Shown: piece after piece, positions 32,127 to 58,725 of the stretch
Layout of the letters: each line of letters starts with the position of its first letter
How positions within the stretch are numbered: position 1 is the first letter of the stretch
Assembly (NCBI GenBank): GCA_964393205.1
Contig: CAYMSV010000002.1
Span: 160,843-224,842 of the forward strand
Direction: 5' to 3'
Origin: an uncultured Pseudomonadales bacterium
GTDB lineage: Bacteria > Patescibacteriota > Microgenomatia > UBA1400 > PJMF01
DNA: 64,000 nt
Program-made: the position numbers and the translations under genes
The notes under the pieces: generated by a model
Told to the model about the DNA's origin: nothing
Database searches by the model: none
What the model saw: the letters and a program-made list of their open reading frames with translations, nothing else

Positions 32127-32149
32127 TATATAAATAAAATAATAAAATT

Positions 32150-32539: not shown

Positions 32540-32541
32540 CT

Positions 32542-32967: not shown

Positions 32968-32991
32968 AATTAACAAATTAAAAAAATAAAT

Positions 32992-33333: not shown

Positions 33334-33403
33334 ATTTTTTTGCTAAAGACTAATAAACTTGATATAATAAAAATTAGATAGAAAAATTTAAAAGGAGACT
33401 TTT

Positions 33404-33808
33404 ATGAAATTAACTAAAAAAATTGCTCTGGCTAGCGGCAGCGCTTTCAGCGGGATTCTTCTTCAAGCCAAAATGGTGATGGCAGCTTTCGATGACATTG
33501 AGGTTAATCCAGGCACGGGCTATGCTACAGATTTTGGCAAAATGTTTAGTTCTATTTTAAACGTAGTAATGCTAATTGCTGCTGTTTTAGTTTTTGCTTA
33601 TCTTATCTTTGGAGGCATCCAGTGGATTACCTCTGGAGGAGATAAAGGAAAAGCTGAAGAAGCACGCAATAAAATTACAGCCGCCATTATTGGATTAATT
33701 ATTGTAGCGGCTTCCTATGCAGTAATTAACTTAATTGTGAACTTCTTGGGCTTTGGTAGCTTTAATGAAGTTTTTCAAAATGTAGGTACCATTAATAAAC
33801 CTAATTAA
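33404..33808 (+). CDS. VirB2/TrbC-like pilin candidate, paralog 6
   Basis: Strong SD AAGGAG 8 nt upstream. 'IQWITSGGDKGKAEEARNKI'. Confidence 0.55.
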   Translation: MKLTKKIALASGSAFSGILLQAKMVMAAFDDIEVNPGTGYATDFGKMFSSILNVVMLIAAVLVFAYLIFGGIQWITSGGDKGKAEEARNKITAAIIGLIIVAASYAVINLIVNFLGFGSFNEVFQNVGTINKPN

Positions 33809-33840
33809 TTTTAGATACTAAAAACTCTCTTTTCATTTGC

Positions 33841-34266
33841 TTGGAAAGAGAGTTTTTTATTGCTATAATCAGAATTATTATGATTCAAATCTTTTCGTTT
33901 TTTTCCATTGTTAAACCTGTTCAAGCACAGACTAAAAGCTGGGATCAAATAAATGACAATTGTGTTATAGAAGGAGTAGCAAGTATTCAGGGTATTGGTT
34001 GCTTGCTAGCCAACATTCTTTCTGTGGTTTTAACTTTAATTGGTATAGCGGGATTTGTGATGATTATTTATGCGGCTTTTAATTTATTATTATCAGCTGG
34101 AAAAAGCCAAGAGGTAGAAAAATCTAAAAACACTATTACTTTTGCTATTATTGGTTTAATTTTAGCTCTATCTGCTTTCATAATTATTAATCTCATTTCT
34201 AGCTTTACAGGCATTGATTTTATTAAGTCTTTTGTTATTCCAGGATCACAAAAAGACTGGTTCTAA
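33841..34266 (+). CDS. VirB2/TrbC-like pilin candidate, paralog 7
   Basis: Signal peptide '...VQA|QTK'. Two TM helices with the loop 'SAGKSQEVEKSKNT'. Confidence 0.45.
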   Translation: MEREFFIAIIRIIMIQIFSFFSIVKPVQAQTKSWDQINDNCVIEGVASIQGIGCLLANILSVVLTLIGIAGFVMIIYAAFNLLLSAGKSQEVEKSKNTITFAIIGLILALSAFIIINLISSFTGIDFIKSFVIPGSQKDWF

Positions 34267-42957: not shown

Positions 42958-43422
42958 TCAAGCGTCTTGATTCTTGACCTCAATAATTAAAACTCTTCCC
43001 AAATCTCTATCCTCAGAATGAGTGTATATTTTTTCCAAACCAACTTCTTTAGCAATTGCCTCGTGGACCAAATGTCTTTCATAGGAATTTAGGTAACGAA
43101 ACTCATAGGACCGTCCAGTTTCCAAAACTCTTTGAGCTAAATCTAAAGCTTTTTCTTTCAACCGTTCTTCTTGTCGTAACTTATAATCATTAATGTCTAG
43201 GCTTATACGCTTATCTTCATAGTCATCTTTAAAACTTAATTTAGTTAACAATTCGATAGCGCTTAGAGTTTCCCCTCTGCTACCAATTAACAAAGCAGTA
43301 TCTTTTTCATCAGTTTTAATGTTTATTTGAACTCTTTCCTCTCCCTCCTCAACTTTAATTTCAATTTCTCCTTCAACTCCCAAATATTCAATTAATTTAC
43401 TCAGGTATTCTTCGATTTTCAT
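42958..43422 (-). CDS. jag: Jag/KhpB RNA-binding protein (KH + R3H)
   Basis: 'LIGSRGETLSAIELL' is the KH GxxG-type segment. 'ERHLVHEAI' is the R3H. It sits downstream of yidC as usual. Confidence 0.7.
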   Translation of the reverse strand: MKIEEYLSKLIEYLGVEGEIEIKVEEGEERVQINIKTDEKDTALLIGSRGETLSAIELLTKLSFKDDYEDKRISLDINDYKLRQEERLKEKALDLAQRVLETGRSYEFRYLNSYERHLVHEAIAKEVGLEKIYTHSEDRDLGRVLIIEVKNQDA

Positions 43423-43432
43423 AATTAGTCTT

Positions 43433-44455
43433 TCAAGAGCGCTTCTTTTTTTTGGCTGCTCGTTTTTTTTGCTGACGACTTTTTTTAATTTTTTCTTGTT
43501 TTTTCACTTTAGTGGCCCTGGTATTTTTAGTTGGTAAAGACTCTGTACTTGCACCTCTTTTCATCAAAAGTTCAGCTAATTCTGTATTTTTTTTATTACT
43601 ATCTTTTGTTTTTAATATTTTCTTTAAAGGAGTCTCCTTAACTATTTTTTGCTTTTTATTTTCTTCTATCAAAATATTTTTACCTTGCTCTTCCGACAAA
43701 AGTTTAGCTCCAAAAAGACCTTTCTTTGCGACATGATTATTCCAAAAAACAGCAATTCCTCCTAAACCAGAAACAAAATATTGAGTAACAATACTAAAAA
43801 CTGTTCCCATAATCCAATATAAAGCTAAACCAGAGGGTAATCTTAAAGCAATTATACCAGTCATAATTGGCATTAAAAACATCATTTGTTGCTGCATGGT
43901 AGAAGCCATTTCAGCTATGTCTTCTTCTTTCTCATTAGCTTTCTTTAACAACTCGTCTTGGGTTTTATTCGGCACCACATCTCTGGTTTGAGTAGCAGGA
44001 GAGATCATTAAAGATAAAATAAATTGGCTAAGAGCTGCTAAAATTGGAAAAATATATAATCCATCTGGTTGACTAAGATCAGTCCATAAAAAATTAAAAT
44101 TTAATCCATTTGACTGATCAAATAAACCAATAATTGCTCGATACAAAATAATTAAAATCACTAATTGAATTAATTGAGGTAAACAACCAGCTAGAGGATT
44201 AATATTATAGCTTTTATAAAGTTGAGATTGAGCAAGAGCATATCCTTGTTTATCTCCCTTATATTTTTCTTTAAGTTTTTTTAATTCTGGCTGGAGTTTT
44301 TTAATTTTTTGACTCGACTTAATGCTTGGTAAGGTTAAGGGTAAAATTAATAAACGAATAATTATAGTAAAAACTATAAGAGCTAACCCAACACTACCTA
44401 AAGCACTATTAAAAAACAATAAAACTTCGCTAAAAAAAGTAATTAAAAATCCCAT
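43433..44455 (-). CDS. yidC: membrane protein insertase YidC (short monoderm type) with basic C-tail
   Basis: 'LALYWIMGTVFSIVTQYF' and a K/R-rich C-terminus. Confidence 0.85.
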   Translation of the reverse strand: MGFLITFFSEVLLFFNSALGSVGLALIVFTIIIRLLILPLTLPSIKSSQKIKKLQPELKKLKEKYKGDKQGYALAQSQLYKSYNINPLAGCLPQLIQLVILIILYRAIIGLFDQSNGLNFNFLWTDLSQPDGLYIFPILAALSQFILSLMISPATQTRDVVPNKTQDELLKKANEKEEDIAEMASTMQQQMMFLMPIMTGIIALRLPSGLALYWIMGTVFSIVTQYFVSGLGGIAVFWNNHVAKKGLFGAKLLSEEQGKNILIEENKKQKIVKETPLKKILKTKDSNKKNTELAELLMKRGASTESLPTKNTRATKVKKQEKIKKSRQQKKRAAKKKKRS

Positions 44456-44462
44456 AAATTTC

Positions 44463-44645
44463 TTAGTGGCGACAATTAAGCGCTCGCCAAATTCCTTTCG
44501 CTAACCCGATAATTGTACCATTCTTTTTTATTTCCAGAGTAGTATATTGACTACAGCTTGGCACCTGACCGCACACTGAAGAGTAACCAAAAACACTATA
44601 CATAATATTATGCCGAATCGTACTTAAAAACTTATATACTTTCAT
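44463..44645 (-). CDS. yidD: membrane protein insertion efficiency factor YidD
   Basis: 'CGQVPSCSQY' fits the YidD C-x-x-x-P-x-C-S-x-Y motif. 60 aa. Overlaps rnpA by 4 nt. Confidence 0.7.
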   Translation of the reverse strand: MKVYKFLSTIRHNIMYSVFGYSSVCGQVPSCSQYTTLEIKKNGTIIGLAKGIWRALNCRH

Positions 44646-44998
44646 ATTTGTTTTAAAAATGTATTTAAATCTTCTTCTAAACCACTCACTTTGAAATCTC
44701 GATTTTTATAAACAATAATTAAATCAAAATTTTTATTGAACAAGCTTTCTTTTTTAACCTCTAACATCTCTTTGTTTTTTTTAATAATTAGGTTATAGAG
44801 TAATCGCCTATGATGGTTGCGCTGATGGGCTTTGGGGAAAAGTCTTGAGGGGGCTAGAGCAGTAGTTTTTAATCCGCTTTTGTTTGGTCGATAATAAAAT
44901 AATAAATCCTTGCCCACATATTGTTGACTCAAACCACTCTTAAACATTTGACTATTTTCTGTCAAAGTTAAATTGAGGCGGTGTTTTTTTGCCAACAT
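44642..44998 (-). CDS. rnpA: ribonuclease P protein component
   Basis: Basic 118-aa protein. 'KAHQRNHHRRLLYNLI' matches the RnpA RNR-motif region. Its position after rpmH supports the call. Confidence 0.75.
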   Translation of the reverse strand: MLAKKHRLNLTLTENSQMFKSGLSQQYVGKDLLFYYRPNKSGLKTTALAPSRLFPKAHQRNHHRRLLYNLIIKKNKEMLEVKKESLFNKNFDLIIVYKNRDFKVSGLEEDLNTFLKQI

Positions 44999-45041
44999 TA
45001 AGTTTAATTTTACTCTAAAAAAAAGAAAAAGTGTTAAAAAT

Positions 45042-45188
45042 TTAAGCTTTTTTAATTACAGTTAGTTTTTTGCGTTTTTTCGCTCTACGTCTAGCTAAAG
45101 TTTTTCGTCCTCCTAAAGTAGACATTCTTTTTAAAAAGCCGTGCATTCTTAAGCGCTTCTTTTTTTTAGGATTCCAGGTTCTTTTCAT
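45042..45188 (-). CDS. rpmH: 50S ribosomal protein L34
   Basis: Not in the ORF track (under 60 aa). The hand translation is [48 protein letters not shown], a canonical L34. Confidence 0.8.
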
Positions 45189-45209: not shown

Positions 45210-46349
45210 TTATTCGTTGACTCTAAAGGGCATGCTAATATATAAATAATTTTTATCACTCGGATTGGTAAACTTTGCTGGTTTCAAACTTTCATTCACA
45301 CTTAAAAATATTTTTTCTGCATCAACAGCATTAACAAAATCAATTAAATACAAAACGTTGAAGGCTATTTGTAGCTCATTTAACTCTTCTTTTGAAATTT
45401 CCGTATCTATCTCAATAGGCATTTCTCCAACATATTCTCCATAGGTTGGAGAAATAGATTTTATTATTAAATAATTATTTTTGTTTTCATTTTTAAATGA
45501 TAAACGAACAATGTTTGAACTCTCTCTTGAAAAAATTTGTGCTCTTTTAAGTTGATCTAAAAATTCTTCGCTACCAATATGTGCTTTTAATTTAAAGTTT
45601 GGTGGAATAATTTTTTGATAGGGTGGGTAGTCTCCTTCAATTAATCTAACAAAAAATTCAATACCATCAACTTTAAACAAAAGTTGTTTAAGTTCTTCAG
45701 CCACAATTATTTCCACTTCATCGCTCTGACATTGTTTGGCTATTCTCAATAGTTCACTTAGCGCTTTAGCTGGAACCATTAAATTTTTAGTAAAAGAAAA
45801 TTTAAGTTTATTAAGCTCAATATTAGCTAATCTAAATCCATCTGTTCCAACAACGGTTAATCCTTTTTCAGAAAATTTCATTAACAGTGATGTCAATACT
45901 GGTCTTGTTTGATCGGTGCTCGTAGCAAAAATTACTAACTTCTGAATCTTTTCCAAGTCTGATGTTTGTAATTTAAAAGAATCACCGCTAACTTCAGGAA
46001 ATTTAGGATATTCTTCTGTTGATTGACAACTTAATTTAATTTTTGTTTTTCCTTGAGTTATTTTTAAAACAGAATCTACTAATTCTAAAGTAATTTTCCC
46101 AGGAGAAAGAGAGAAAATTAAACTACGAAAAGTATCTCCATCTACCACTAAAGATCCTTTTTCTTTAACTTCAACAACTGTGCTCGACCTCATACCTAAA
46201 TATAAGTCTGTTGCGGCTAAAATCAACTTATTATCTTGGGCTTTAAGAAAAATAGATGACAAGATTGGCAATTGTGGCCTGCTTGGTATAATTTTTTGTA
46301 AATAAACAAGTTCTTGTTTAATGTTTTCTTGTAAGGCAATTATTTTCAT
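45210..46349 (-). CDS. dnaN: DNA polymerase III beta sliding clamp
   Basis: 379 aa. 'MKIIALQENIKQELVYLQKII' N-terminus and a three-domain length. It sits immediately downstream of dnaA. Confidence 0.9.
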   Translation of the reverse strand: MKIIALQENIKQELVYLQKIIPSRPQLPILSSIFLKAQDNKLILAATDLYLGMRSSTVVEVKEKGSLVVDGDTFRSLIFSLSPGKITLELVDSVLKITQGKTKIKLSCQSTEEYPKFPEVSGDSFKLQTSDLEKIQKLVIFATSTDQTRPVLTSLLMKFSEKGLTVVGTDGFRLANIELNKLKFSFTKNLMVPAKALSELLRIAKQCQSDEVEIIVAEELKQLLFKVDGIEFFVRLIEGDYPPYQKIIPPNFKLKAHIGSEEFLDQLKRAQIFSRESSNIVRLSFKNENKNNYLIIKSISPTYGEYVGEMPIEIDTEISKEELNELQIAFNVLYLIDFVNAVDAEKIFLSVNESLKPAKFTNPSDKNYLYISMPFRVNE

Positions 46350-46717
46350 AAACTTTATTGTAACTGATAAATTTTAATTTCTATAATTAATATATATAAA
46401 AATAGTAATAGTAGTAGTAGGCGTGGTGGAAAAGTGTAAAAGCGAAACCTACTTTAAGATTTTTACTCAAAAAAAATGTTTTTTTATAGAATATTTTTTT
46501 TGTTAATAAACGATTTAAAACGGTGAATTTTTTTGTGAATTTTTTAGAACACTTTTGTATAAGTTAGAAACTAATAAACAAAGTGATAAAAGATATTTCC
46601 TTTTTTTCACAGCTTATTCAGATTTTATCCACAGAGTTTTTCAGGTTTGTGGAAAACTCTCTGTTAATATTTGTTTTATTAACAAAAAGCAGGTATTTAT
46701 CAGCTTTTTTAATGTGC
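46350..46717. other. candidate oriC (dnaA-dnaN intergenic): DnaA boxes plus AT-rich unwinding region
   Basis: Perfect TTATCCACA at 46625..46633. TGTGGAAAA (reverse complement of TTTTCCACA) at 46648..46656. A degenerate box sits near 46424..46437. The AT-rich segment 46350..46420 carries (TA)4 and (AGT)n. 368 bp with no ORF. Confidence 0.55.
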
Positions 46718-48226
46718 CTACTTAGAAATAGCCACTAAAGACATTTTTAAGGCAGAAACATCTTGAATGGTTGTTTCGTCAACTAAAAGTTCTTTTTCAA
46801 TCTTTTTAACTGCGTGAATGACGCTGGTGTGGTCTCGACCACTAAACCACTGACCGATTTCTTCAAGAGAGCTATTTAGTTCTTGTCTTAAAAGGTACAT
46901 AGCAATATGACGAGCTCTAACTAACTCTTTATTGCGTCTACCACCCTTAATAGCACTTTGTTTGAGGTGAAAATGATTGCTAACACTTTGAATAATATCT
47001 TGAGGTTTAACTTTAAGCATTTTTTTATGATTTTGTCTAATTTCTTTTTTAAGAATTAAATCAATTAATTCAACATTGATTTCTGCTCCCTGTAATTCAA
47101 CGGCACTACGAATTTTTTTGATAATTCCTTCAATTCTTCTGGCACTGTCAACTTGAGCTGCAATTCTTTGAGCTAAATGATTGGGAATATTGATATGATT
47201 TGATTGAGCCTTGAGTAATAAAATTGCAGTGCGAAGCTCTAGGGTTGGTTGTTGAATATCAATCATTAGACCAGCTTCAAAGCGCGAGCGAATTCTGTCT
47301 TCCAGCAAACTAATTTCATGAGGAGGAAGGTCGGAGGTTAAAATAACTTGTGAGTTGTTTCCAGTTAGAGCATTAAATGTATGAAAAAATTCTTCCTGAA
47401 CACTTTTTTTACCAGCAATAAACTGAATGTCATCTAAGAGTAATAATTCAGCTCTTCGATATTTGTTGCGAAATTGAGCTGAATTTTTATTTTGAATGGA
47501 TCGAATAATTTCATTAGTGAATTGCTCGCCGGTACAAAAAACAATGTTGGTGTCTGGATCATTTTTTAATATGTAATTGGCGATAGCGTGCATAAGATGT
47601 GTTTTTCCTACACCAACACCTCCATATAGAAAGAGGGGGTTGTAGCTTGAGCCGGGACTGCTAGCGACTTTGGTAGCGGCTGCATGAGCCATTTGATTGC
47701 TAGGATCAACAGCAAAATTATTAAAGGTAAAATCATTCTTAAGACCAATTTGTTTTGCTCTTAAATTAAACCTGTCAACAGCATTATTTTCAATATTTGA
47801 ATAAGAAAAGAGCTCATCTACCGTGGGAGAAACGAGTTCTAGACCATTAGTGCTTTTATCTGTTTTTTGAGACTGCTTTTTTTTAGAATTCAAACGTTGG
47901 TCGGTTTGAACAAAACTATTATTTTGTTTTTCTGTTTTTTTACTGTTACCTACTACAAAGTTTATTTCCAGCGGTCTGTTTACGTATTTTTCTAAGGCTG
48001 TTTTGATTGGCAAATAAAGATTAGATTTTAAATTAGTTGCATGAAACGCAGTCATGCAATTAATGGTTGCTTCAGCTTTTAATTCATCAATAACTCGTAA
48101 TTGAGTGAGTGGGCTGGGGAGAATCCAGGTATTAAAAATTGCTGGACTTAAGCTACTTTCCAGATCGTTTTTAGCCATTTGCCAAATTTGTTCAATGGTT
48201 TGAGAGTCATAAGCTTGTTCTGACAT
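46718..48226 (-). CDS. dnaA: chromosomal replication initiator DnaA
   Basis: AAA+ Walker A 'LFLYGGVGVGKTHLMHAI', sensor regions, and a C-terminal domain IV 'RNKELVRARHIAMYLLRQ'. Confidence 0.95.
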   Translation of the reverse strand: MSEQAYDSQTIEQIWQMAKNDLESSLSPAIFNTWILPSPLTQLRVIDELKAEATINCMTAFHATNLKSNLYLPIKTALEKYVNRPLEINFVVGNSKKTEKQNNSFVQTDQRLNSKKKQSQKTDKSTNGLELVSPTVDELFSYSNIENNAVDRFNLRAKQIGLKNDFTFNNFAVDPSNQMAHAAATKVASSPGSSYNPLFLYGGVGVGKTHLMHAIANYILKNDPDTNIVFCTGEQFTNEIIRSIQNKNSAQFRNKYRRAELLLLDDIQFIAGKKSVQEEFFHTFNALTGNNSQVILTSDLPPHEISLLEDRIRSRFEAGLMIDIQQPTLELRTAILLLKAQSNHINIPNHLAQRIAAQVDSARRIEGIIKKIRSAVELQGAEINVELIDLILKKEIRQNHKKMLKVKPQDIIQSVSNHFHLKQSAIKGGRRNKELVRARHIAMYLLRQELNSSLEEIGQWFSGRDHTSVIHAVKKIEKELLVDETTIQDVSALKMSLVAISK

Positions 48227-48303
48227 ACTAATCCTTAAACGTCTTTCTGGGGCAGAATTTAAAATTACAAAAGAAAATTAACACCCATAGTTATACACAG
48301 TGT

Positions 48304-48312
48304 TTTCCACAT
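48304..48312 (+). promoter_or_regulatory. DnaA box TTTTCCACA in the dnaA upstream region
   Basis: Exact 9-mer, about 80 bp upstream of the dnaA start, within the 104-bp gap to the VirB4-like gene. Confidence 0.45.
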
Positions 48313-48330
48313 TTGACAAGGGGCAGTTTT

Positions 48331-50526
48331 TTATTTTGGAGCTTGGTAGTCGTCAATTGAATAAGCAAAATGTTGTTTATTGTTTGATTCTTCAGCCCGT
48401 GTATTTTCTGCTTGGTCGGAATTTTTGTTTTGATTTTCAATGTTTGTGTTTTGAGGTTTTTGTTGTTTATAATTTTCACCATCAAATATATTTTTAATCT
48501 GAGGCAATACCGGGTTTTGTTTTAACTTATTTTCTGCTTTTTGTTTTGCATTTTCTAAAACATCTTTTGTAAAATCAAGTTTTTCTCCTTGCCAAGGAAT
48601 TTTGTTTGGTTTATCAAAAGAGCCAACTTTTTCTTTTTGAGCTTCTGTTGACGAGCTTTGTTCAAGTCTTTGACGACGCAATTCTCTTTCAGCATTAGCT
48701 TGTTTTTTTTGACTTAAAATTTCTTCTGGATCAGTGGTAATTACTTGATGTTCTTTGTCAGAAGCAATTACTCGCAGCGCCACATGATTTTGTCCAGCAA
48801 AAAAGATTCCTTCACCAACATCTGATGTGACTAAAAGTTGTCTTTCACCTTCAGATAGATAAAAAGTTTGGGCTAAAAGGGGGACTGAAGATGTGGATTG
48901 TTTCATCAAAAATTGAATGGAAGAGTTCGAAACAATGGCTCGTCCATAGTCGTTACGTAAAAAGTCTTCAACGTCTTGGGTGATAGTAGTAATTCCCAAA
49001 TAATATTTACGTGCTCTTTTAACCATTGAATAAACAAAAGCTGAGCTATCTTGATGCATCATAAAATACCAGGCTTCATCAATAACCAAAATACGCCTTT
49101 TAAGATCTTTTTTAATTTTTGTCCAGATAAAATCAAGAATTACATACATTGCAATTGGTCTTAATTCTTCTTCCATTTCTTTAACACTGAATACGGTAAA
49201 AGGTGACTTAATATCTATGTTAGAAGCTTTGTCAAAAATACCACGAAAAGAACCGGTAATAAATTTTTCTAAGCGAGCAGCTAAATCAGCGCTTTCATCT
49301 TGTTCCATGCCAATTAAGGCTTTATAAAGATCTTCCATTAACGGAGGAGTGTTGGTTTGAGTATTTGGGTCTGGGGTTATGCCTTTAGCCTTATAACTAG
49401 CGACAATAGCACGATCTAATATAGCCTCTTGTTGAGGAGTCATTTCACCCAACATTACTTTTAACAAACCATGAAGTGAAAGAATTTTTTGTCCCAGTTC
49501 GTTTTCGCCCTCTTCATACAAATTAGATAGGTCAAAGGGGTTAATTTTAGCTTTCGAGCCGAAAGTAAAATTAATATATTCTCCATCAACCATTTTGCAG
49601 AGTTCTTCATATTCGTGTTCTGGATCTAAAACAATGATTTCTGTGTCAAACATTAGTTGTCGCAAAATTTCTAGCTTGACTGTATAAGATTTACCAGCTC
49701 CAGATTTAGCAAAAATAACCATGTTAGCGTTTTCCATCTTAAAGCGATCAAATATTACCAGAGAATCGTTATGTTCATTAATTCCATAAACAATGCCTGT
49801 TTCCATAGTTAATTCTGAGGAAGTAAAAGGAAAAGTTGTAGCTAAAGAGGTGGTATCCATGTTTCTGGTAACGAGTAGCCGGTCTACACCCATAGGAATG
49901 GTCGTTTTAAAGCCTTCGTCCATTTGTAGAGCTGATTTCTTAGAGACGATTAATAAAGACCCTAGGGCAGACTGAATGGCCTTGGTGGTTTTTTCCAATT
50001 GTTCTCTGCTTTCGCTCTTAATAGTGACATATAAACTAAACTGAAAAAATCTTTCTGATCCAGCAGCAAGTTGCTCACGCATCACTCGAGCGTCATTTAG
50101 TTTAATTTCGGTATTAATATTACTAATTTTACCCGCTCTAACATCAGAGGTAATTTCCGCCTCCATTTCAGTAATTTTTCTTTTTAAATTATCTAAAATT
50201 TCACTAGTATCAGAGGGAAAAATAAACATCGAGATATTGGCTTGGGTGGGAAAGTTAATTAGTGGGGATAGCCAGTTAGCGGGAACACTTCTAGGATAGC
50301 CAGCTACGAAGAGAGTTCTTGTGTAGGTGGAATTAATTTTTTGATAGGTAAAATCAACTTCAATTGCCTCTGGAGCAATAATATCTTGAATGGTAACAAG
50401 ACCTCGGGAAAAATCTCTCAATTTTTCTTGGGTATATTGTTCTGCATCGATCTGTTTTTGCTCCACAGGATCAGCGTTGGTTTTTTTCTTATTAATAAAT
50501 GGTAGGTTAAAATCTAAAATTGACAT
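48331..50526 (-). CDS. type IV secretion system ATPase VirB4/TrbE/TraE family (monoderm-type)
   Basis: Walker A 'VIFAKSGAGKSYTVK'. Walker B 'RILVIDEAWYFM'. The N-terminal region 'YTRTLFVAGYPRSVPANWLSPLIN' is typical of Gram-positive-type VirB4. 731 aa. Confidence 0.85.
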   Translation of the reverse strand: MSILDFNLPFINKKKTNADPVEQKQIDAEQYTQEKLRDFSRGLVTIQDIIAPEAIEVDFTYQKINSTYTRTLFVAGYPRSVPANWLSPLINFPTQANISMFIFPSDTSEILDNLKRKITEMEAEITSDVRAGKISNINTEIKLNDARVMREQLAAGSERFFQFSLYVTIKSESREQLEKTTKAIQSALGSLLIVSKKSALQMDEGFKTTIPMGVDRLLVTRNMDTTSLATTFPFTSSELTMETGIVYGINEHNDSLVIFDRFKMENANMVIFAKSGAGKSYTVKLEILRQLMFDTEIIVLDPEHEYEELCKMVDGEYINFTFGSKAKINPFDLSNLYEEGENELGQKILSLHGLLKVMLGEMTPQQEAILDRAIVASYKAKGITPDPNTQTNTPPLMEDLYKALIGMEQDESADLAARLEKFITGSFRGIFDKASNIDIKSPFTVFSVKEMEEELRPIAMYVILDFIWTKIKKDLKRRILVIDEAWYFMMHQDSSAFVYSMVKRARKYYLGITTITQDVEDFLRNDYGRAIVSNSSIQFLMKQSTSSVPLLAQTFYLSEGERQLLVTSDVGEGIFFAGQNHVALRVIASDKEHQVITTDPEEILSQKKQANAERELRRQRLEQSSSTEAQKEKVGSFDKPNKIPWQGEKLDFTKDVLENAKQKAENKLKQNPVLPQIKNIFDGENYKQQKPQNTNIENQNKNSDQAENTRAEESNNKQHFAYSIDDYQAPK

Positions 50527-51650
50527 TAAAGTTCCACTGGACCCGGTTCATTTTTATTTAATATTTGATTGGTTGAGTTTGGTGGCATTGTTTTTTGATT
50601 TAAAGTGTTGTCTTGGGTATTTAAATCTGTTTTTTTGGTTTCATCATTTGCTTGTAAACTCTGTTCTTGCTCGGGATTCGTTGTTTGTAAATGAACAATT
50701 TCTTCGCTAAAGTTTGGTGAAGGGTTTATTTGTAATTTTAAATCCGCTATTTTGTTTAAATCTTGAGAAACAAATTGAGTTTTTTTATTTGGCTCTTGAT
50801 TACTTGTTTGATTTTTTTTTGAGATCTCTTCATCAACAGTTATTGATTGAGGTGTTTTAGTTAAAGTGGGAGTTTCGCTTGGTTCAATATTTAGCTCTGG
50901 TGCGGGTGTTGGTGCTGGTGCTGGTGCCTGATTAACGACTTGATCCATTTCGTTAAAATTTTGATTACTTGTCAAACTAGCTCTAACCATAGGAGTCGTA
51001 TAACTCTCGCTATTGGTAACTTCTTGACCTTCTGTCGACTCTGGATTGTAATTGATGTAAAAATTTTGAATAATTTCTTGAGTGTCTAGTTGTCTAGCAA
51101 ACAAGCCAATTCTATTAAATTGAGCAATTAAATGATCTCTACGAGGATCTAATATTGTAGAGGCTTTTTCAATTAGAATGGTTTTTTCAAAATTATTAAT
51201 ATTAAATTTAGTTTTACCAGGTAAAACACTTTCCGCAGTATAAAGACCCATTTCTCCAGCATTGGTAGGAATAACTACAAAAAATTTTTTTTCTAAAACA
51301 TTTCTCTCACGAATTAGATTGGCCACGAATTCTCGGTATTCTTCAATTAATTTAGCTTTTTCTCTAGATTTGGCTTGTTTTGCTTGGTTTTCAAGTAGTC
51401 TTAGATATCTTGTTGCATCTTTAATATTAGACTGAATGTTAATTTGAATGGGAAAGTTAAGAGAATTAAGCAGGGCACCATAGGTATACATAATGGCGTC
51501 TTGTTCTTGCTCTGCTAACAGACTAAAGTTCATGGTGCCTATTTGCATAATGATGGATATTACACCATCTTTAAGAATTACCATGTCGTTGGTAATATCA
51601 TAAACATCAAGAAACTCTTGTGTGGTAGAACTAATAGTGTTGTCGCTCAT
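50526..51650 (-). CDS. T4SS-associated protein; N-terminal ~150 aa resemble the non-ATPase N-domain of VirB4/TrbE; Q/P/T-rich tail
   Basis: 'FLDVYDITNDMVILKDGVISIIMQIGTMNFSLLAEQEQDAIMYTYGALLNSLNFPIQINIQSN'. TAATG overlap with VirB4 suggests translational coupling. Confidence 0.4.
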   Translation of the reverse strand: MSDNTISSTTQEFLDVYDITNDMVILKDGVISIIMQIGTMNFSLLAEQEQDAIMYTYGALLNSLNFPIQINIQSNIKDATRYLRLLENQAKQAKSREKAKLIEEYREFVANLIRERNVLEKKFFVVIPTNAGEMGLYTAESVLPGKTKFNINNFEKTILIEKASTILDPRRDHLIAQFNRIGLFARQLDTQEIIQNFYINYNPESTEGQEVTNSESYTTPMVRASLTSNQNFNEMDQVVNQAPAPAPTPAPELNIEPSETPTLTKTPQSITVDEEISKKNQTSNQEPNKKTQFVSQDLNKIADLKLQINPSPNFSEEIVHLQTTNPEQEQSLQANDETKKTDLNTQDNTLNQKTMPPNSTNQILNKNEPGPVEL

Positions 51651-51704
51651 GAGTCTTGTTTAAGTTTACTAGATTTTGACCCTTAGTAAAAGAGTCTTAA
51701 TTTT

Positions 51705-52658
51705 CTAATCAGCAATAATTTCTATTGTTGGTACTAATTTTCCAGTCAATCTAATGCTTAGTGGGGTAAATATTAAATCCTCTGCTTCGGTTTTAATTAA
51801 ATATTCTCCGTTAGGGAGTGCTGTTTTAATATAAAATTGACCAGCAGTATTAGTTTTAATGATGCGTAAAGCTTGGTTCTGATCGGCAGCAAATACTTCG
51901 ATCAAAGCGTTTTTAACTCCTTGACCACTTGTATTCTTTACCAAGCCAACTAATTGATTAGCTTGTTGTGCTTCTAATTTATTATTACCTTCGTTTTTAT
52001 TTTCTGAAGTGACTGGTTCTTTGTTCGCTTCCACTGTGTTTTGTAAGTTGTCTTGTGCATTTTTTTCCCGAACTTCTTCTAAATTTTTTAGTTTACGAAT
52101 TCTTGTTTTTAATTGTGGTTTGTTTCTTTCTTGTTCTGGTTTAACGGAAATATTTTCAGCTCTAACTTTAACCTGATCATAGTTGGCAATAAGATCTTGA
52201 GTTTTTTGTTTGTAATGATAGTCCCAGTCATCAAGTTCTTCATCATTTTCTGGAATACTCTTTAAATATTCTTGAATGCGTTTTTTTCTAGCAGGTGAAT
52301 AATTAACCTCTGGATTAACTTCAAGATTTTGATTTAATCCTGGTTTATAGTTAAAGAAATCAGGAACCTTTGGAGTTCTTTTCCAAAAAAATTTAGTAGG
52401 TTTCCAAAGATTTTTAAAAAAAGTGACGATCCAAAAATCAAGAGGTCTCTCTTCTATGGGGACGAAGGCAATCATAATTGACAATAAAACTATAAAAATA
52501 AATAAAGGCCATCTAACTACGCCAATTAGATTACTTTTATAAACAATAAAAGCAATGAGTGCTCCAACTGCTAGTTCGGCAAATTGTTTAAGGGTCATGC
52601 TACCGATTAGATGGAATTTATAACCAGTGATGTCTTGAGGAATTGGGTGTTGTTTCAT
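51705..52658 (-). CDS. VirB3-like two-TM protein fused to a C-terminal prealbumin-like (CarboxypepD_reg-like) beta-sandwich domain
   Basis: Two N-terminal TM helices ('LAVGALIAFIVY', 'WPLFIFIVLLSIMIAFV') precede VirB4, as in Gram-positive T4SS. The C-terminal segment 'GVKNALIEVFAADQNQ...TNTAGQFYIKTALPNGEYLIKTEAEDLIF' is prealbumin-like. Confidence 0.4.
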   Translation of the reverse strand: MKQHPIPQDITGYKFHLIGSMTLKQFAELAVGALIAFIVYKSNLIGVVRWPLFIFIVLLSIMIAFVPIEERPLDFWIVTFFKNLWKPTKFFWKRTPKVPDFFNYKPGLNQNLEVNPEVNYSPARKKRIQEYLKSIPENDEELDDWDYHYKQKTQDLIANYDQVKVRAENISVKPEQERNKPQLKTRIRKLKNLEEVREKNAQDNLQNTVEANKEPVTSENKNEGNNKLEAQQANQLVGLVKNTSGQGVKNALIEVFAADQNQALRIIKTNTAGQFYIKTALPNGEYLIKTEAEDLIFTPLSIRLTGKLVPTIEIIAD

Positions 52659-53062
52659 AAGGACAGTTTGTTTGACTGATATTCAAAGCGCTCGCTTTTA
52701 ATATCACCAAAACCTTTTTCATTTAACCATATTTCTAGTGCTTTTTCTGTAGCGCTTAAACCGAGGTCTGATTTAATTATAAAGCCACCAGTTTTATATG
52801 AATACTGAATGTTGAAGTCGGGTGTGGTAACAGGAGTAATGTTTTTTAGTTCAGTTATTAGGCGTAATTGTTCTTCTTCATTTTCACTCAACATTGCTTC
52901 ATCAACGGGAAAAGCGTCTCTAAGAATTATTTCTTCTGGTTCTTTTGTTGGTGGGGGAGTTGGCACGATTACTTCCTCTGCTCTTTGTTTTGCAAACAAA
53001 ATAATTAATAAGATTATTATAAATAAAGTAATAATAAAAATGATTCTGATCTTTTTTTTCAT
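52655..53062 (-). CDS. small N-terminally anchored extracytoplasmic protein (T4SS operon)
   Basis: 135 aa. TM helix 'IIFIITLFIIILLIILF' plus a PTPPPT linker. ATGA overlap with the downstream gene. Confidence 0.35.
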   Translation of the reverse strand: MKKKIRIIFIITLFIIILLIILFAKQRAEEVIVPTPPPTKEPEEIILRDAFPVDEAMLSENEEEQLRLITELKNITPVTTPDFNIQYSYKTGGFIIKSDLGLSATEKALEIWLNEKGFGDIKSERFEYQSNKLSL

Positions 53063-53064
53063 AA

Positions 53065-56000
53065 TTAATTTTTTATTAAATATAGATGTCTAATATAGCT
53101 GTTGTCGGTACCCGAAGTTAAGCCTTCTCCAGAAGTAGACACAACTTTGTGGGTAACATTTTCTCCCCACCAAGGATCATAAGCTGTTAGATAGCCAGGC
53201 TCTTCAACACAGGTAATAACATAATAGTGGCCAAATCCACGAGTGTGGGTGAGAGCAAATAAAAGATTGCCTTCCGCCAAATAATTGGCCAATTCGTCAG
53301 TAATTTGACCAGGGCTGCCAGTGGGTGTAGGTACGGCGGTCGCGCTGACTCCATTATTACTTAGGGTGCTAATAAGGGGGGACAAGGCTGTACCGGCACA
53401 GCTAGTGGCACCACAGCCTCCTGGTACCAAATAACCTTCTCTAGTAGACATTGTTATTGGATCTTCATTGAGGATCATGGCAATGCTGACTGGTCCACAG
53501 GAAGAAGAACCAAAACTACAACCGCCATTACAAATCATAATATTGTTATAGGCTTTTTGGCTATAATAGGTGAGGTTGCCAACGACAACATCGTTACAAA
53601 AAACTGCACTGCCTCCACCACCAAGGCTTCCGCCGGTAGGAAATTGAGTTAAAAAAGCGCTGTTTAGAGTAGTCTGATAAATAAGCATGCTTCCGGCCGC
53701 TAAGCCAAAAGCGGTAAGTACTGCTTGACCAGCGGTAACCATAGCTCCAGAGCCAACTTCAGCTAAGCTAGCTCTAGCTCCAGTTAATTGAGTGCCTCTT
53801 GCTTGTATTTCGCTAGCAGAAACTCTATTTGCTAATTGACCAGCTTCTGAACTCAAGGGTTGAGTAATAGAGTTAGAAGCTTCAGCTTCTAGCGCACTAG
53901 ATAAAATATTGTTTTTTGCAAAAACACCTGTCCCTGTATTGCCAGAAAACAAATTTTTAAAAAAAGATGCAGCTTGTATTCCTAATTTTATGAGAATGCC
54001 TAAAAGTGTGCCTAAAAAAGCAAGTATTGCTAATATGCTTGCAGCTAAAATTTTTAAGAGAGGCTCCAATTTCTTTTTTATTTCACCCCAAGCTATTTTT
54101 TCAATCATTTGCTTGATTGGCTCGGGCAAAGTTTCAAAAGCTCCACCGGTAACATAATCTAACCCAGCTCGAACAGCTTTTTCTCCTAAAAAATCAATTC
54201 CTTTGTTGGCGAGATTTTTTATGCTTTCAAAACCCTCTTTAAGTTGAGATTCAACGGCACCTTCTTCATTAAATTGTCTGACAAAAGGGTATTGTCCATT
54301 CTCGTCTGGACCAAAAGCCTGATTATAATTAATAGCTCCTAAATCATAAGCAGAAAATTGGGGTAGGCTGCTTGATTGCAAATATATATTTTCAACTAAA
54401 AATTCTTCTCGTGGGAGATAGTAGTGTAGGGTGGCTGTTTGTGCCCTAGTCCCACTAATATTAATAACGTCAAGAAAAGTTTGTTGATAAACTAGTCTTA
54501 ATTGTCTGAGTTTTTGATTTTGTTCATCACTAAAAGCATTAAAATTAATCTGATTTTGAGGAAGACCAGCCAAGGTTTTAGTAACGACATCTGCATCGAT
54601 AACATTTAATTGAGATTGTTGTTTGAGTTGTTGAAAATATATGGTTTGTTTTTGTATCGATTTTTTGTCCTTGCTGACAAGCACATCTTCTGCTTCAATT
54701 TTTTCAATATCTTCTGGGCTGTAAATTTCATTAGCAATACCCTCATGAATAGATTGACTCCATTCCGCTCTTTGTGTGCGCCAATAACTAGCAAGCAAAT
54801 CTTTAATGGCTTGTTCGTTAGCTAAAAAAGTATTTTGACTGATAAATTCTTGGCCAAAATGAGCTTGAAAGCGTTGCCAATCAAAACGCTCAATATAATC
54901 GACGGGATAATTTTGTTGAATAAAGGTATCTATGATTGGCAGAATATTTTCTTGTGCAAAGAAAGATTTTTCCAGTCCTCTTTTGTCATCAGCGACAATT
55001 TTTTGCCATTCACTAAGAAAACTCTTTTTGGTAACCCTAGTAAAGCTTTTTCTTATATTTTTTAAAAAATCTTTTTTAAAATCTGCTTGAGAGTCTAATT
55101 TCTTAAAAAATAGCTCAGCCTCTTCACTAGATAAGTTCTGTAGTTGTTCTTGAAGTTCGGGTGGTAAATCTGTAGCATTGATATTTAGTTTTTGGGCTAA
55201 TTGTTCTTGAGTTAAAGCTTGATCTTGATTTTTTTCTAATTGGGCTTGAATTTCTGTTTTATCTTTGTCACTGCTAGTTAAGCTACCGAGTTCTGTGGCA
55301 AAAAGTTGCCCACCCCTGATATCAGTCATTACTTTCAGCGCTACATCTTTGGAAAAGCTGATTCTTTGGGATGGATTATTAATTAAATCTTCTAAATCAT
55401 AGCGGCCACTAGTAAAAAGATTTTCAATTTTACTAAAGCTAATTCCCAATAATTGTTGTCTAGTTTCTAGCGATAGTTGATTAAAATTAGGAATTTGCTC
55501 AAAACCCATTTCTGTCAGTTGTTCTTTCGAGAGATTGGCAAATTGAATTTGTAAGGATTGATTAATGGAAATAATAGCTAAAGAGCGAATATAAAGTTTA
55601 GAGCGATCATCGAGGCGAGCTAAATTAAATTCACTAGAAAAATCTTCGGGAAGGTTTTGTTTGATTTTTTCAGTTTTTTGTTCTTTGTCGGTGTCGTCTC
55701 CGTATTCTTCTGAAGTTTGTTGAGAACTGATGGGTTGTTTTTTATCTTGCGTAGAAGAAGTGGGAGTCTTTTTATCAATTTCCTCTTGAGAATCTTTGGT
55801 TTTTAAATTATCTTCTTGTTGTTGCTCAATGATCTTAATCATTGGTTGAGCTAAATCGGTATTAACTTTTTGCCATAGAGAGAAAGTTTGTTCCAATTTA
55901 CTTAATTCTTTGAGCAAGATTTGATCAGAACCAGGTTTGCTAGCTAGGCCGATGCGGTTAAAAAAATCTCTACCGAGTTTTGCCAAGGCTTGCTTGCCGT

Positions 56001-56412
56001 CCTGATCAATAAATTTAGCTAGTTGAAGGTTGCTTTGTTCTAAAAAAGCAATAAGGTCGCTCAAAAAAAGACTGTTTTGTAAAATTTGATCTTTTTGTCT
56101 ATTTAATTCATCAATAATCTTTTTTTTCTGTTCAGAGTTTATTGCTTTATCTTGAGTGACATCGGCTATTAGTTTTAATTGGGTTTCAATTTTGCTTGCT
56201 TTTTGTAACCTAAAAGTTTTTCCACTAAAACCCCTGACTAAAAATGGCAAATTAAAGCTTTTGCCAAACTTTTGAGGAAGATCTTGATTAAAGAAGTTTC
56301 CACAAAAAGAGATGATGATTTTTAATTCATCAAAGTTAAGATTGTTTTGACTAGCTAGCTGTTTGAGTTCAATACGCAAACTACCATGGTCTTGATCAGC
56401 CATAACACTCAT
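53065..56412 (-). CDS. large bitopic protein: ~860-aa cytoplasmic Q/E-rich domain, TM, extracytoplasmic C39-like papain-fold cysteine peptidase domain (candidate cell-wall hydrolase of the T4SS)
   Basis: TM helix 'ILAASILAILAFLGTLLGILIKL'. Cys motif 'CGPVSIAMILNE' and His motif 'GFGHYYVITCVEE', as in C39/C39-like peptidases. Confidence 0.5.
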   Translation of the reverse strand: MSVMADQDHGSLRIELKQLASQNNLNFDELKIIISFCGNFFNQDLPQKFGKSFNLPFLVRGFSGKTFRLQKASKIETQLKLIADVTQDKAINSEQKKKIIDELNRQKDQILQNSLFLSDLIAFLEQSNLQLAKFIDQDGKQALAKLGRDFFNRIGLASKPGSDQILLKELSKLEQTFSLWQKVNTDLAQPMIKIIEQQQEDNLKTKDSQEEIDKKTPTSSTQDKKQPISSQQTSEEYGDDTDKEQKTEKIKQNLPEDFSSEFNLARLDDRSKLYIRSLAIISINQSLQIQFANLSKEQLTEMGFEQIPNFNQLSLETRQQLLGISFSKIENLFTSGRYDLEDLINNPSQRISFSKDVALKVMTDIRGGQLFATELGSLTSSDKDKTEIQAQLEKNQDQALTQEQLAQKLNINATDLPPELQEQLQNLSSEEAELFFKKLDSQADFKKDFLKNIRKSFTRVTKKSFLSEWQKIVADDKRGLEKSFFAQENILPIIDTFIQQNYPVDYIERFDWQRFQAHFGQEFISQNTFLANEQAIKDLLASYWRTQRAEWSQSIHEGIANEIYSPEDIEKIEAEDVLVSKDKKSIQKQTIYFQQLKQQSQLNVIDADVVTKTLAGLPQNQINFNAFSDEQNQKLRQLRLVYQQTFLDVINISGTRAQTATLHYYLPREEFLVENIYLQSSSLPQFSAYDLGAINYNQAFGPDENGQYPFVRQFNEEGAVESQLKEGFESIKNLANKGIDFLGEKAVRAGLDYVTGGAFETLPEPIKQMIEKIAWGEIKKKLEPLLKILAASILAILAFLGTLLGILIKLGIQAASFFKNLFSGNTGTGVFAKNNILSSALEAEASNSITQPLSSEAGQLANRVSASEIQARGTQLTGARASLAEVGSGAMVTAGQAVLTAFGLAAGSMLIYQTTLNSAFLTQFPTGGSLGGGGSAVFCNDVVVGNLTYYSQKAYNNIMICNGGCSFGSSSCGPVSIAMILNEDPITMSTREGYLVPGGCGATSCAGTALSPLISTLSNNGVSATAVPTPTGSPGQITDELANYLAEGNLLFALTHTRGFGHYYVITCVEEPGYLTAYDPWWGENVTHKVVSTSGEGLTSGTDNSYIRHLYLIKN

Positions 56413-56478: not shown

Positions 56479-58725
56479 ATGAACATAAATAGTGAGTTTT
56501 CACCTAAGAAGGGTTTTTTTAGAGAAGTAGATAAAGGTGGGGGTGGTGGTGGTGGTGGTGGTGGAGGTAAAGATGATGAGGGTGAATCTAGTAGCAACAA
56601 CGAACAAGAAGATGCTAAAGGAGCAACAATGAAAACAGAAAAAGAAATCTTAGACAATGTTTTACCAATTCTAGGAGCTGACATCAAAAAAACAGCTCAG
56701 TTAATTGACGACCTTGAAGCTGAAGCAGCCATTGAGGTGCTAGAGCAATCTCGAGACTTAGCTATGTGGTATAAAACTTCTTCTCCTAAAGAAACAGCAG
56801 CATTAGCTTTTCTTAAAAAAAAGTTAGAAGAAAAAGCTGCAGAATTAGGTTATTCTTTTGAAGATGAATTGGAAGAAAGCGAGGGGAGTGTAGGGGGTGC
56901 AGAAAGTGTAGAGAGTGCAGAAGATGGAGAGAGACCTTCTTGGCAAACAAAGTTTGATCGTTTATGGGACGAGTTGCAAGATACCTATAGGGAGAGAGCT
57001 AGTTCTAATCCAGACATTCGTGATTTAACTTCACAACTCACTGAAATTGTTGAAGAACATTTTTCTGAAGAAGAAAAGAGGGCTTATAGAAGAACTCTAT
57101 TAATGAGAGATGTAGCTAACCCCAATGCAGTCTTTAGGCATTTGTGTACTGAAACACCTGAGGAAGCTCGAAAAAAATCTTATCTTAATGAAGCTCATGA
57201 ATTAAGAAAATATATGGATTTAGAAAATGTTTTTGGAGTGTCCATAAAAGAAATCGTTGACTATTTAGAAACAGATGCTTTTGATAATATTGAGCATAAA
57301 ATAACGAGGGGAGACGGAAGTATTGGTGTATTTCATTGGGATTATGCTGCTAATGGTGATCCGGAAGAAGAGCTTTATGCTCCAAGAGAAGATGATGGAA
57401 CTATTGATTTTTCGGGTTTTCCAAATGAAGGAGACGTGATTCCTGATGAGGAGTGGAAGGGGAAAAAGGCCCTAACTCTTCAAGAGTTGATTGAAAATAA
57501 ATTTCCAAAATTAAAAGAAATTCCTAAGTTTGTTTCCGATTCTTTAATAACCTTTGTTATAGTTTCTGAGCTTAGGTATCATAAATTTTATCCATATTAC
57601 AACTATTATCAAAACTCTCCTATTAATGGTATGGATGCCGGTGCTCTTTTACCCTGGGGTATACCAGGCTATTTGGGCTATAAGGCTGCTTCGATTCAAA
57701 AAATTCCTGGATATAGCTCGATTTTGATGTTAACGAGACATCCTAATGAAGAAAAGTTAAAAGAAGTTAATGACTTTGAAGGTACTGACGAGGAGATTGA
57801 AGATTCTATAAATGCCGAATACAGGACTATAAATTTTGAAGAGGACTGGGCGAGAGGGCGCTTTATTTTTAAGAAAAATGACAATGGCGTTGTTGAAAGA
57901 AATCATGGCAGACGTATTAGGGAACACGAATATGTTGAAAATCGTAATGAAAGTTTTGAAGGTGATAGTTTATATGATAAGACATCAAAAAAAAAGAGAT
58001 TTGATAAGGCTCTAGAGAACAGAGAAATAATGGTTATGGTGAGAAATGCTCTTTGCTGGATGTTTTCTCCAGACGTAGATTTTGGTTCGGTTACTCTTAA
58101 TCCTGACATGCAATTGCTACCCAGCCCTTGGAATGTGATTAAGGGTAAATGGAGAGGTGAGTCTATTAACATTACCTTAGATGATCTTTTTGAAGTTTAC
58201 GATCAATTTAATAAATTTGCTGAAGAAATAGATAACGTCCCAAGCATAACTCAGCCAATGCAGGCAATGACTCTACTCTCAGATTTAATAAGCAATACTT
58301 CTAGGTTTAAGGTTATCTTTGGTAAATTAAATAAACCCGTTTTTCAAGAATTATATGATCTCGTTGGATTAATGTATATGTTTTATCTTAAGAAATTATT
58401 TGATCAATATATGAAATTGCCAAAAATGAAGGGTTTGTCTTATGCTACAACCCCAAAACACATGGTTTTTGCTCAAGAGGTAATACATGAGGTAGAATTT
58501 GACAGAACTCTGCCGCCGTTTATCAAAGAAACCATTGTGAAAGCCATGAATCAATTAGGCGTTGTCGCAGATGGAAAATGGGGAGTTATATTCTCTCCAC
58601 CAACTGCGGAAGATGAAACCCCTCTATTTATTAGATTTCAGCAGCTCGTTGGTTCTGGTTTTGCTCAAAATTTAAATCGTTGGCTTAAACCGGCTAGACC
58701 TGAAGAAAAAGATCCAAATCAATAA
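56479..58725 (+). CDS. hypothetical acidic cytoplasmic protein with Gly11 run (embedded antisense in the T4SS-like locus)
   Basis: 748 aa, D/E-rich, no TM helix. It has the Gly run 'GGGGGGGGGGG'. No known motif. Confidence 0.45.
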   Translation: MNINSEFSPKKGFFREVDKGGGGGGGGGGGKDDEGESSSNNEQEDAKGATMKTEKEILDNVLPILGADIKKTAQLIDDLEAEAAIEVLEQSRDLAMWYKTSSPKETAALAFLKKKLEEKAAELGYSFEDELEESEGSVGGAESVESAEDGERPSWQTKFDRLWDELQDTYRERASSNPDIRDLTSQLTEIVEEHFSEEEKRAYRRTLLMRDVANPNAVFRHLCTETPEEARKKSYLNEAHELRKYMDLENVFGVSIKEIVDYLETDAFDNIEHKITRGDGSIGVFHWDYAANGDPEEELYAPREDDGTIDFSGFPNEGDVIPDEEWKGKKALTLQELIENKFPKLKEIPKFVSDSLITFVIVSELRYHKFYPYYNYYQNSPINGMDAGALLPWGIPGYLGYKAASIQKIPGYSSILMLTRHPNEEKLKEVNDFEGTDEEIEDSINAEYRTINFEEDWARGRFIFKKNDNGVVERNHGRRIREHEYVENRNESFEGDSLYDKTSKKKRFDKALENREIMVMVRNALCWMFSPDVDFGSVTLNPDMQLLPSPWNVIKGKWRGESINITLDDLFEVYDQFNKFAEEIDNVPSITQPMQAMTLLSDLISNTSRFKVIFGKLNKPVFQELYDLVGLMYMFYLKKLFDQYMKLPKMKGLSYATTPKHMVFAQEVIHEVEFDRTLPPFIKETIVKAMNQLGVVADGKWGVIFSPPTAEDETPLFIRFQQLVGSGFAQNLNRWLKPARPEEKDPNQ
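56539..56568 (+). repeat. (GGT)n trinucleotide microsatellite, ~10 units, in-frame (poly-Gly)
   Basis: ggtgggggtggtggtggtggtggtggaggt. Confidence 0.8.

Follow-up and report, generated by a model that had tools for sequence, protein, structure and literature searches.

A well-known origin of the kind considered here is that of Bacillus subtilis, where the incC region with its basal unwinding system (BUS) lies between dnaA and dnaN and combines a distal cluster of DnaA boxes with same-orientation tandem boxes, a GC-rich spacer, 3'-GAT-5' DnaA-trios and an AT-rich element before dnaN (Richardson et al. 2016/2019; Pelliciari et al. 2021). The trio motif itself has been defined as 3'-NAN-5', preferably 3'-GAT-5' (PMC6669920, PMC8287927). 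The dnaA gene can also be controlled by its own product, as at E. coli dnaAp and the B. subtilis dnaA-dnaN operon, whose DnaA boxes overlap the core promoter. Patescibacteria are further known for origin-proximal T4SS clusters (PMC12102498; for Southlakia, PMC10633639) which, according to the available excerpts of the former paper, are chromosomal, lie near dnaA, dnaN, rpmH and rnpA, and comprise a VirB4-like ATPase, PrgI/VirB3-like and TraC/TrsD-like proteins and VirB2-like pilins, without a relaxase. The same excerpts (PMC12102498, Microb Genom 2025) place dnaA, dnaN, rnpA and rpmH among the commonest virB4 neighbours in Paceibacteria and Microgenomatia and propose an origin-proximal gene-dosage effect for the T4SS; head-on orientation and cassette inversion go unmentioned in them. 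The essential T4SS of Southlakia carries locus tags SEML1_0006-0019 (PMC10633639). A full-text literature search returned no description of a CPR oriC beyond the T4SS paper PMC12102498.

The locus analysed here lies in a 64-kb stretch of DNA, hereafter the window, with a G+C content of ~0.33, from the compact genome of an ultra-small CPR bacterium that is Pacebacteria-like (Microgenomatia). From the observed motifs, synteny and switch in skew, it is highly probable that this locus combines an incC-like oriC in the dnaA-dnaN spacer, where DnaA would bind and unwind DNA, an upstream promoter through which DnaA would repress its own gene, and a dnaA-oriC-dnaN cassette that would have been inverted in place in an ancestor. 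While it is on record that the T4SS of Patescibacteria lies close to dnaA (PMC12102498), the new part is modest, namely a base-level origin model for the lineage and a cassette inversion that spans the clade. Such a prediction of boxes, trios and unwinding element in an uncultured CPR lineage may serve to orient MAGs, to estimate growth rate from coverage (peak-to-trough) and to design vectors. The window's origin and gene order leave current models unchallenged.

Gene layout and the skew switch beside dnaA

The genes around dnaA, all on one strand, are arranged as follows.

42958-45188, minus strand: rpmH-rnpA-yidD-yidC-jag block, behind dnaN across a 21-bp gap
42958-43422, minus strand: jag/KhpB (Pfam)
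43433-44455, minus strand: yidC (Pfam)
44463-44645, minus strand: yidD, 60 aa (gene calls on contigs with identical DnaA, and translation)
44642-44998, minus strand: rnpA (Pfam)
45042-45188, minus strand: rpmH, 48 aa (gene calls on contigs with identical DnaA, and translation)
45210-46349, minus strand: dnaN, 379 aa (Pfam, three DNA_pol3_beta domains)
46350-46717: dnaA-dnaN spacer, 368 bp
46718-48226, minus strand: dnaA, 502 aa (Pfam Bac_DnaA 1.1e-64, Bac_DnaA_C 6.2e-26)
48227-48330: gap upstream of dnaA, 104 bp

Genes for an RNase H, a DUF4012 protein and L25, identified by Pfam matches, lie on the minus strand like dnaA. An earlier reading of this DNA from its letters only (the sequence-only reading) had called the neighbourhood atypical, with the rpmH-to-jag block downstream of dnaN on the same strand and T4SS-like genes upstream of dnaA. 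These genes are where it placed them, and the order does depart from the classical layout, in which rpmH and dnaA diverge; unlike at the B. subtilis origin, the window's cassette is inverted relative to rpmH.

Total-base GC skew gave an ambiguous picture, with a local minimum at ~46-47 kb and negative values again after 58.7 kb, and was replaced by the skew at third codon positions of each gene (GC3 skew), which removes the coding-strand effect. Of the 50 genes to the left of 46350, 46 gave a negative value, and of the ten to the right of 46718, nine gave a positive one, whichever strand the genes occupy, with dnaN (-0.099) siding with the left replichore and dnaA (+0.365) with the right-hand one. 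Since two of the last three genes keep a positive GC3 skew, the total-base dip after 58.7 kb looks like a coding-strand effect. A maximum-likelihood fit over the 64-kb window set the change point at 46742 (support interval 45954-46820), with a log-likelihood ratio of 108 that none of 200 shuffles matched. The interval takes in the dnaA-dnaN spacer and leaves out the gap upstream of dnaA; within the 64 kb, the negative-to-positive switch on which searches of the Ori-Finder/DoriC type rely thus falls at the spacer. Skew likewise turned from negative to positive across dnaA in Firmicutes control loci with classical origins and in most of the CPR loci examined, among them six of the seven from Pacebacteria, and was weak or uniformly negative in two outgroup loci (L092, L107).

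A predicted unwinding module in the dnaA-dnaN spacer

Matches to the DnaA-box pattern TTWTNCACA were counted across the 64-kb window. Of the eight, five are located in the two gaps flanking dnaA (472 bp together), where ~0.06-0.09 would be expected, and these are also all five of the intergenic matches, in gaps that account for 17% of 2833 intergenic bases. The count for the window as a whole was not enriched (8 observed vs 11.7 in shuffles). Within the window, then, a box search of the kind that the sequence-only reading had proposed finds clustering beside dnaA above chance, and the boxes adjoin the indicator gene, as Ori-Finder/DoriC-style searches look for. The spacer holds the following elements.

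46350-46402: predicted AT-rich unwinding element and dnaN leader, beginning TTTTTATATATATTAATTATAG
~46391-46399: (AT)n repeat
46403-46420, plus strand: six predicted DnaA-trios, TAG TAA TAG TAG TAG TAG, i.e., 3'-GAT GAT GAT GAT AAT GAT-5'
46421-46424: GC-rich spacer of 4 bp (ACGC in the dnaA sense) that separates the first trio from the proximal DnaA box
46425-46441, minus strand: tandem DnaA boxes of the predicted unwinding module, TTTTACAC then TTTTCCACC, 8-mers at an 8-nt offset
46603-46656: distal cluster of three DnaA boxes towards the dnaA 3' end, detailed in the next three lines
46603, plus strand: degenerate DnaA box TTTTTCACA
46625-46633, plus strand: DnaA box TTATCCACA
46648-46656, minus strand: DnaA box TTTTCCACA, 14 nt from the TTATCCACA box

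The perfect, opposite-strand and degenerate boxes that had been noted in the spacer are all present, as is the AT-rich segment described as containing a microsatellite, with a (TAG)n microsatellite at 46403-46420 and the (AT)n repeat. In dnaA orientation, the end of the spacer nearest dnaN runs TTTTACAC-TTTTCCACC-ACGC-CTA CTA CTA CTA TTA CTA-TTTTTATATATATTAATTATAG, the CTA repeats being the complement of 3'-GAT-5' DnaA-trios. The published search rules for a BUS call for a DnaA box with at most two mismatches, 0-16 bp from at least three consecutive trios, together with a second box in tandem, and the spacer conforms to them. Its proximal box, TTTTCCACC, carries two mismatches and stands 4 bp from the six trios, its partner TTTTACAC has three mismatches and lies in the same orientation at the 8-nt offset, and the AT-rich element extends beyond the trios. 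By these motifs, the "microsatellite" is the predicted trio track, a predicted single-strand binding track for a DnaA filament, and the "degenerate box" is part of the predicted module.

The arrangement recurs in related genomes. The tandem pair is found in relatives too, with a clade consensus of TTTTCCAC-TTATCCACA at its position; their GC-rich spacer measures 4-5 nt (ccgc, cccc, aaac, gtgc and others), and in every relative compared the trios give way to an AT-rich stretch. Clusters similar to the distal one occur 50-130 nt past the dnaA stop codon in four of them (L007-L010). The order of tandem boxes, 4-5 nt GC-rich spacer, three to eight trios and AT-rich stretch is kept in ~20 CPR loci from Pacebacteria, Amesbacteria, Magasanikbacteria, Saccharibacteria and further Patescibacteria, 16-90 nt before dnaN in these loci and 135 nt before it in one. 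A Bacillus-type unwinding module thus appears, on motif order, to reach several Patescibacteria classes.

Like its B. subtilis counterpart, the window's candidate origin sits between dnaA and dnaN and has every part of the incC/BUS order, from distal cluster to AT-rich element. It differs in preferring TTTTCCACA over TTATCCACA and in the greater degeneracy of its proximal pair. In B. subtilis incC, likewise, the boxes are offset by 8 nt and the spacer measures 4 nt, and that origin employs DnaD/DnaB-type helpers.

A hairpin 3' of the dnaA stop codon (z = -2.8) and many AT-rich inverted repeats were also recorded.

The skew, the DnaA boxes and the unwinding module, as three independent kinds of evidence, agree with one another, so the dnaA-dnaN spacer is very probably oriC, the skew minimum being judged within 64 kb; the change point, the box clustering and the module bear out the earlier proposal that this region is a replication origin. 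At such an origin, DnaA would bind the distal cluster and the tandem boxes, and a filament growing from the latter would cross the 4-bp GC spacer and extend along the six 3'-GAT-5' trios. This would open the neighbouring AT-rich stretch immediately before dnaN, and forks would depart in both directions.

DnaA boxes in the predicted dnaA promoter

Further boxes lie in the gap upstream of dnaA.

48290-48319, minus strand: predicted dnaA promoter with DnaA operator, TTGTCA-AA-TGTGGAAAA-CAC-TGTGTATAAC in the dnaA sense
48291-48299: DnaA box TTATACACA
48303-48311: DnaA box TTTTCCACA

The sequence-only reading had reported one box in this gap, TTTTCCACA, which is indeed there, and had missed the second, TTATACACA. 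The two are 3 nt apart, one between the -35 and the -10 and the other overlapping the -10. A generic promoter scan passed over this promoter, whose -10 ends in C, and it came to light through comparison with relatives: the layout is near base-for-base the same in the four relatives L007-L010, and three more distant CPR loci (L012, L031, L081) have a single box directly after TTGACA. As at E. coli dnaAp and the B. subtilis promoter, DnaA boxes overlap the core promoter; unlike there, the arrangement is very compact, the -35/-10 spacer containing one box and the other covering the -10, and the stop codon of the co-oriented gene upstream directly adjoins the promoter, with no terminator-like site detected. 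The same generic scan found no terminator-like sites between virB4 and dnaN.

Given their place within a conserved dnaA promoter, the upstream boxes most likely form an autoregulatory operator, at which the two of them would mediate repression of dnaA by DnaA. An alternative that we consider unlikely, yet the most credible of those weighed, is that the origin is bipartite, as in B. subtilis with its incA/B and incC, and that the pair at 48291-48311 is a working part of it and not an operator only. That the gap holds two good boxes 3 nt apart, conserved in the clade, would suit such an origin, as would the description of B. subtilis oriC as bipartite with distal boxes acting through looping. 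However, the position of the boxes exactly between -35 and -10 is what autoregulation would be expected to produce without any origin role, the outgroups keep one box only, always beside TTGACA, and the change-point interval places the unwinding site outside the upstream gap.

Gene order in relatives and the T4SS-like operon

The T4SS-like genes of the window are listed below.

31243 and 33404: matches to T4SS_pilin PF18895 (VirB2-like)
48331-56412, minus strand: T4SS-like operon (Pfam), transcribed towards oriC
48331-50526, minus strand: VirB4-like ATPase (P-loop_TraG/AAA_10, 1e-25)
50526-51650, minus strand: TraC-like protein, 374 aa (precomputed PF26593)
51705-52658, minus strand: PrgI/VirB3-like protein (PrgI 27.6 bits vs cut-off 27)
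within the operon, minus strand: a 135-aa protein and a 1115-aa protein, the latter with no Pfam match

With a VirB4-type ATPase alongside PrgI/VirB3-like and TraC/TrsD-like proteins and VirB2-like pilins, the window has the gene set of the Patescibacteria T4SS clusters. It differs from them in that virB4 lies directly upstream of dnaA on the same strand, a consequence of the flipped cassette. The proteins of 580, 748, 799, 294 and 1115 aa had no Pfam match at permissive thresholds; the topology of the 580-aa membrane protein prompts a guess, to which Pfam lends no support, that it is VirB6-like. If tags are numbered conventionally from dnaA, as we assume, the low SEML1 numbers suggest that the Southlakia T4SS lies near the genome start.

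Clade loci were gathered by a DnaA search of species-representative genomes and three look-ups of more distant homologues, the first homologue search giving only proteins at least 51% identical. The order found in the window is identical in all seven other clade genomes (L007-L010, L087-L089; DnaA 51-64% identical), of which those with a taxon label are given as Pacebacteria, Paceibacterota or Patescibacteria: large protein, small protein, PrgI, TraC, VirB4, dnaA, dnaN, rpmH, rnpA, yidD, yidC, jag, RNase H, DUF4012 and L25, then valS on the other strand. Further outgroup contexts came from a metagenome scan seeded with an Amesbacteria DnaA. In the outgroups L012, L090, L092, L094 and L107, valS is followed on the opposite strand by L25, DUF4012, RNase H, jag, yidC and rpmH, then by dnaA and dnaN in the direction of valS and, further on, by VirB4, TraC and PrgI pointing back. 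The block from valS/L25 to rpmH, with rpmH divergent from dnaA-dnaN, is shared by the outgroup Microgenomatia L011, L012, L031, L090-L093 and L107, and in four outgroups (L090, L092, L094, L107) VirB4-TraC-PrgI lies 2.7-4 kb past dnaN and converges on it.

Both flanks are therefore ancestral neighbours, given that the rpmH...L25 block and VirB4-TraC-PrgI flank dnaA-dnaN in outgroups too. On this synteny, the simplest change would be an inversion in place of the ~3-kb dnaA-oriC-dnaN cassette in the clade ancestor, falling between these two standing neighbours. The flip would have taken the dnaA promoter along, set dnaA directly behind virB4 and joined rpmH-rnpA-yidD-yidC-jag behind dnaN, while the T4SS operon would have stayed head-on as before. 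As dnaN and rpmH are only 17-40 bp apart in relatives, a fusion of dnaN and the rpmH block into one operon is implied. In the outgroups, two genes separate dnaN from VirB4, one for a large hydrolase-like membrane protein and one for a small protein. Genes analogous to these stand upstream of PrgI in the window's clade; the outgroup pair corresponds to the window's 1115-aa and 135-aa genes in architecture only, and BLAST of the pair against the window found no similarity. A two-breakpoint inversion does not explain these genes, which calls for at least one further rearrangement or loss.

The orientation of the operon was borne out as head-on: its minus-strand genes have GC3 skews of +0.19 to +0.36, which puts them on the lagging strand, and it is head-on in all seven relatives as well. 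The accompanying claim that this is unusual did not hold, with only 50% of coding bases co-directional in the left arm of the window and the T4SS operon pointing towards oriC, on either side of it, in nearly all CPR arrangements seen (L011 is the exception). The head-on orientation is ancestral, and inheritance suffices to account for it, since inversions that span the origin preserve it. It is improbable, though conceivable, that transcription towards oriC has been selected. By running on into dnaA and through the origin, transcription of the T4SS, the host-interaction machine, would then tie the supply of initiator or the opening of the origin to T4SS expression, and thereby to host contact. 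The flip would have produced a single co-oriented array of ~18 kb, from the T4SS operon through dnaA, oriC, dnaN and rpmH to L25. If selection were at work, T4SS orientation near oriC would be neither a passive gene-dosage effect nor a historical accident.

The gene-order comparison among relatives, which the sequence-only reading had itself named as a refuting test, told against its suggestion that the T4SS-like block had been inserted or rearranged beside the origin; instead, it is the cassette that appears to have moved. Insertion of an acquired or mobile, ICE-like segment, which would explain why the entire block of conjugation-type proteins (VirB4, PrgI, TraC) is on the lagging strand, was rejected as extremely unlikely, because the block keeps its site in the seven clade relatives, whose DnaA identity goes as low as 51%, and lies beyond dnaN in outgroup Microgenomatia and less than 10 kb from dnaA in Saccharibacteria and other CPR, because a Pfam search detected no integrase, relaxase or coupling-protein family and its G+C (0.32-0.38) is inside the window's range, and because the T4SS is vertically widespread and often near dnaA (PMC12102498) and essential in a Saccharibacterium (PMC10633639). 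The apparent anomaly of a T4SS beside dnaA is thereby removed, as this is an ancestral feature of the phylum.

There is hardly any likelihood, either, that the skew switch marks a breakpoint left in the spacer by a large and recent inversion, with the boxes only regulating dnaA and dnaN: although an inversion would have occurred at exactly these boundaries, the inverted segment is only ~3 kb and skew differs across 46 kb to the left and 17 kb to the right, the same switch is present in un-inverted outgroups (L090, L081, L066, L073) and in the Firmicutes controls, and a module of boxes, trios and AT-rich DNA has no known purely regulatory role.

The recF-like gene of the window (28956-30077, minus strand; SMC_N 1.2e-21) is located away from dnaN, at ~15-17 kb, in keeping with the distance first noted for it, and is 29-31% identical to the gene directly 3' of dnaN in three Saccharibacteria loci (L066, L080, L086).

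VirB4-associated genes and a probable second rearrangement

In the outgroup Microgenomatia, a protein of 660-950 amino acids and a small membrane protein are encoded between dnaN and VirB4, at the following positions:

L090, 7457-10251: dnaN-VirB4 interval genes
L092, 12682-15800: dnaN-VirB4 interval genes
L094, 2996-6947: dnaN-VirB4 interval genes
L107, 12760-15260: dnaN-VirB4 interval genes

The larger outgroup protein has a coiled N-terminal part, followed by a Gly/Ala-rich membrane segment and a Cys-rich, hydrolase-like C-terminus. In the window's clade, the analogous genes, encoding proteins of 1115 and 135 amino acids (with Peptidase_M23 present in the relatives' counterparts), lie at the opposite end of the VirB4 operon, which implies a second rearrangement beyond the proposed in-place flip of the dnaA-oriC-dnaN cassette. 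In one outgroup genome (L011), the rpmH-side block contains a VirB4 homologue (5483-7180, 65% identical), flanked by DUF4012 and RNase H. Transcription of this homologue leads away from dnaA, which makes it the sole co-directional case among the arrangements seen.

The two arms flanking the predicted origin

To the left of the predicted oriC, seven small membrane-protein genes are arrayed in tandem, 12-15 kb from the origin, with a divergent sigma factor gene beside them:

30638-34266, + strand: seven small membrane-protein genes (region includes the sigma factor gene)
30638-31201, - strand: ECF-type sigma factor gene

T4SS_pilin (PF18895) was matched by two of the seven proteins. The array is transcribed towards oriC, as is the VirB4 operon located across the origin from it. 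To the right of the origin, only two + strand genes were found within 17 kb, a 294-aa ORF (60617-61501) and the following gene:

56479-58725, + strand: gene for a 748-aa protein

This gene has a strong G skew (+0.23), and its product, which lacked any family match, bears an eleven-glycine run close to the N-terminus and an acidic region. Further features of the left arm include two adjoining genes:

24479-26305: ATP-dependent DNA ligase (all three domains present)
26369-27481: Fic-domain protein with a DeoR-type HTH

The sole RNA gene found in the 64 kb encodes tRNA-Ile with anticodon TAT (UAU; 18085-18161); reading of AUA by a UAU anticodon is uncommon in bacteria. Three neighbouring + strand genes (14961-18043) have a G+C content of 0.39-0.40, clearly higher than the ~0.30-0.35 of the remaining window.

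A motif at dnaA and the labels of relatives

Two copies of CTGCCCC were found at dnaA, one in the leader, ~26 nt ahead of the ATG, and the second immediately 5' of the -35 element:

48249-48260, - strand: CTGCCCC
48320-48331, - strand: CTGCCCC

TCTGCCC(C) was also found in the dnaA leaders of three relatives sharing the window's gene order (L007, L008 and L009), of the outgroup L011 and of a more distant CPR locus (L081).

The public records of L007, L010 and L031 (CAZEEV010000002.1, CAZYNM010000002.1 and CAZZNI010000001.1, respectively) are MAG contigs titled 'uncultured Pseudomonadales' or 'Gammaproteobacteria'. Given that these contigs are syntenic with the window and that their DnaA proteins are 44-64% identical to that of the window's Pacebacteria-like genome, these taxonomic labels look wrong.
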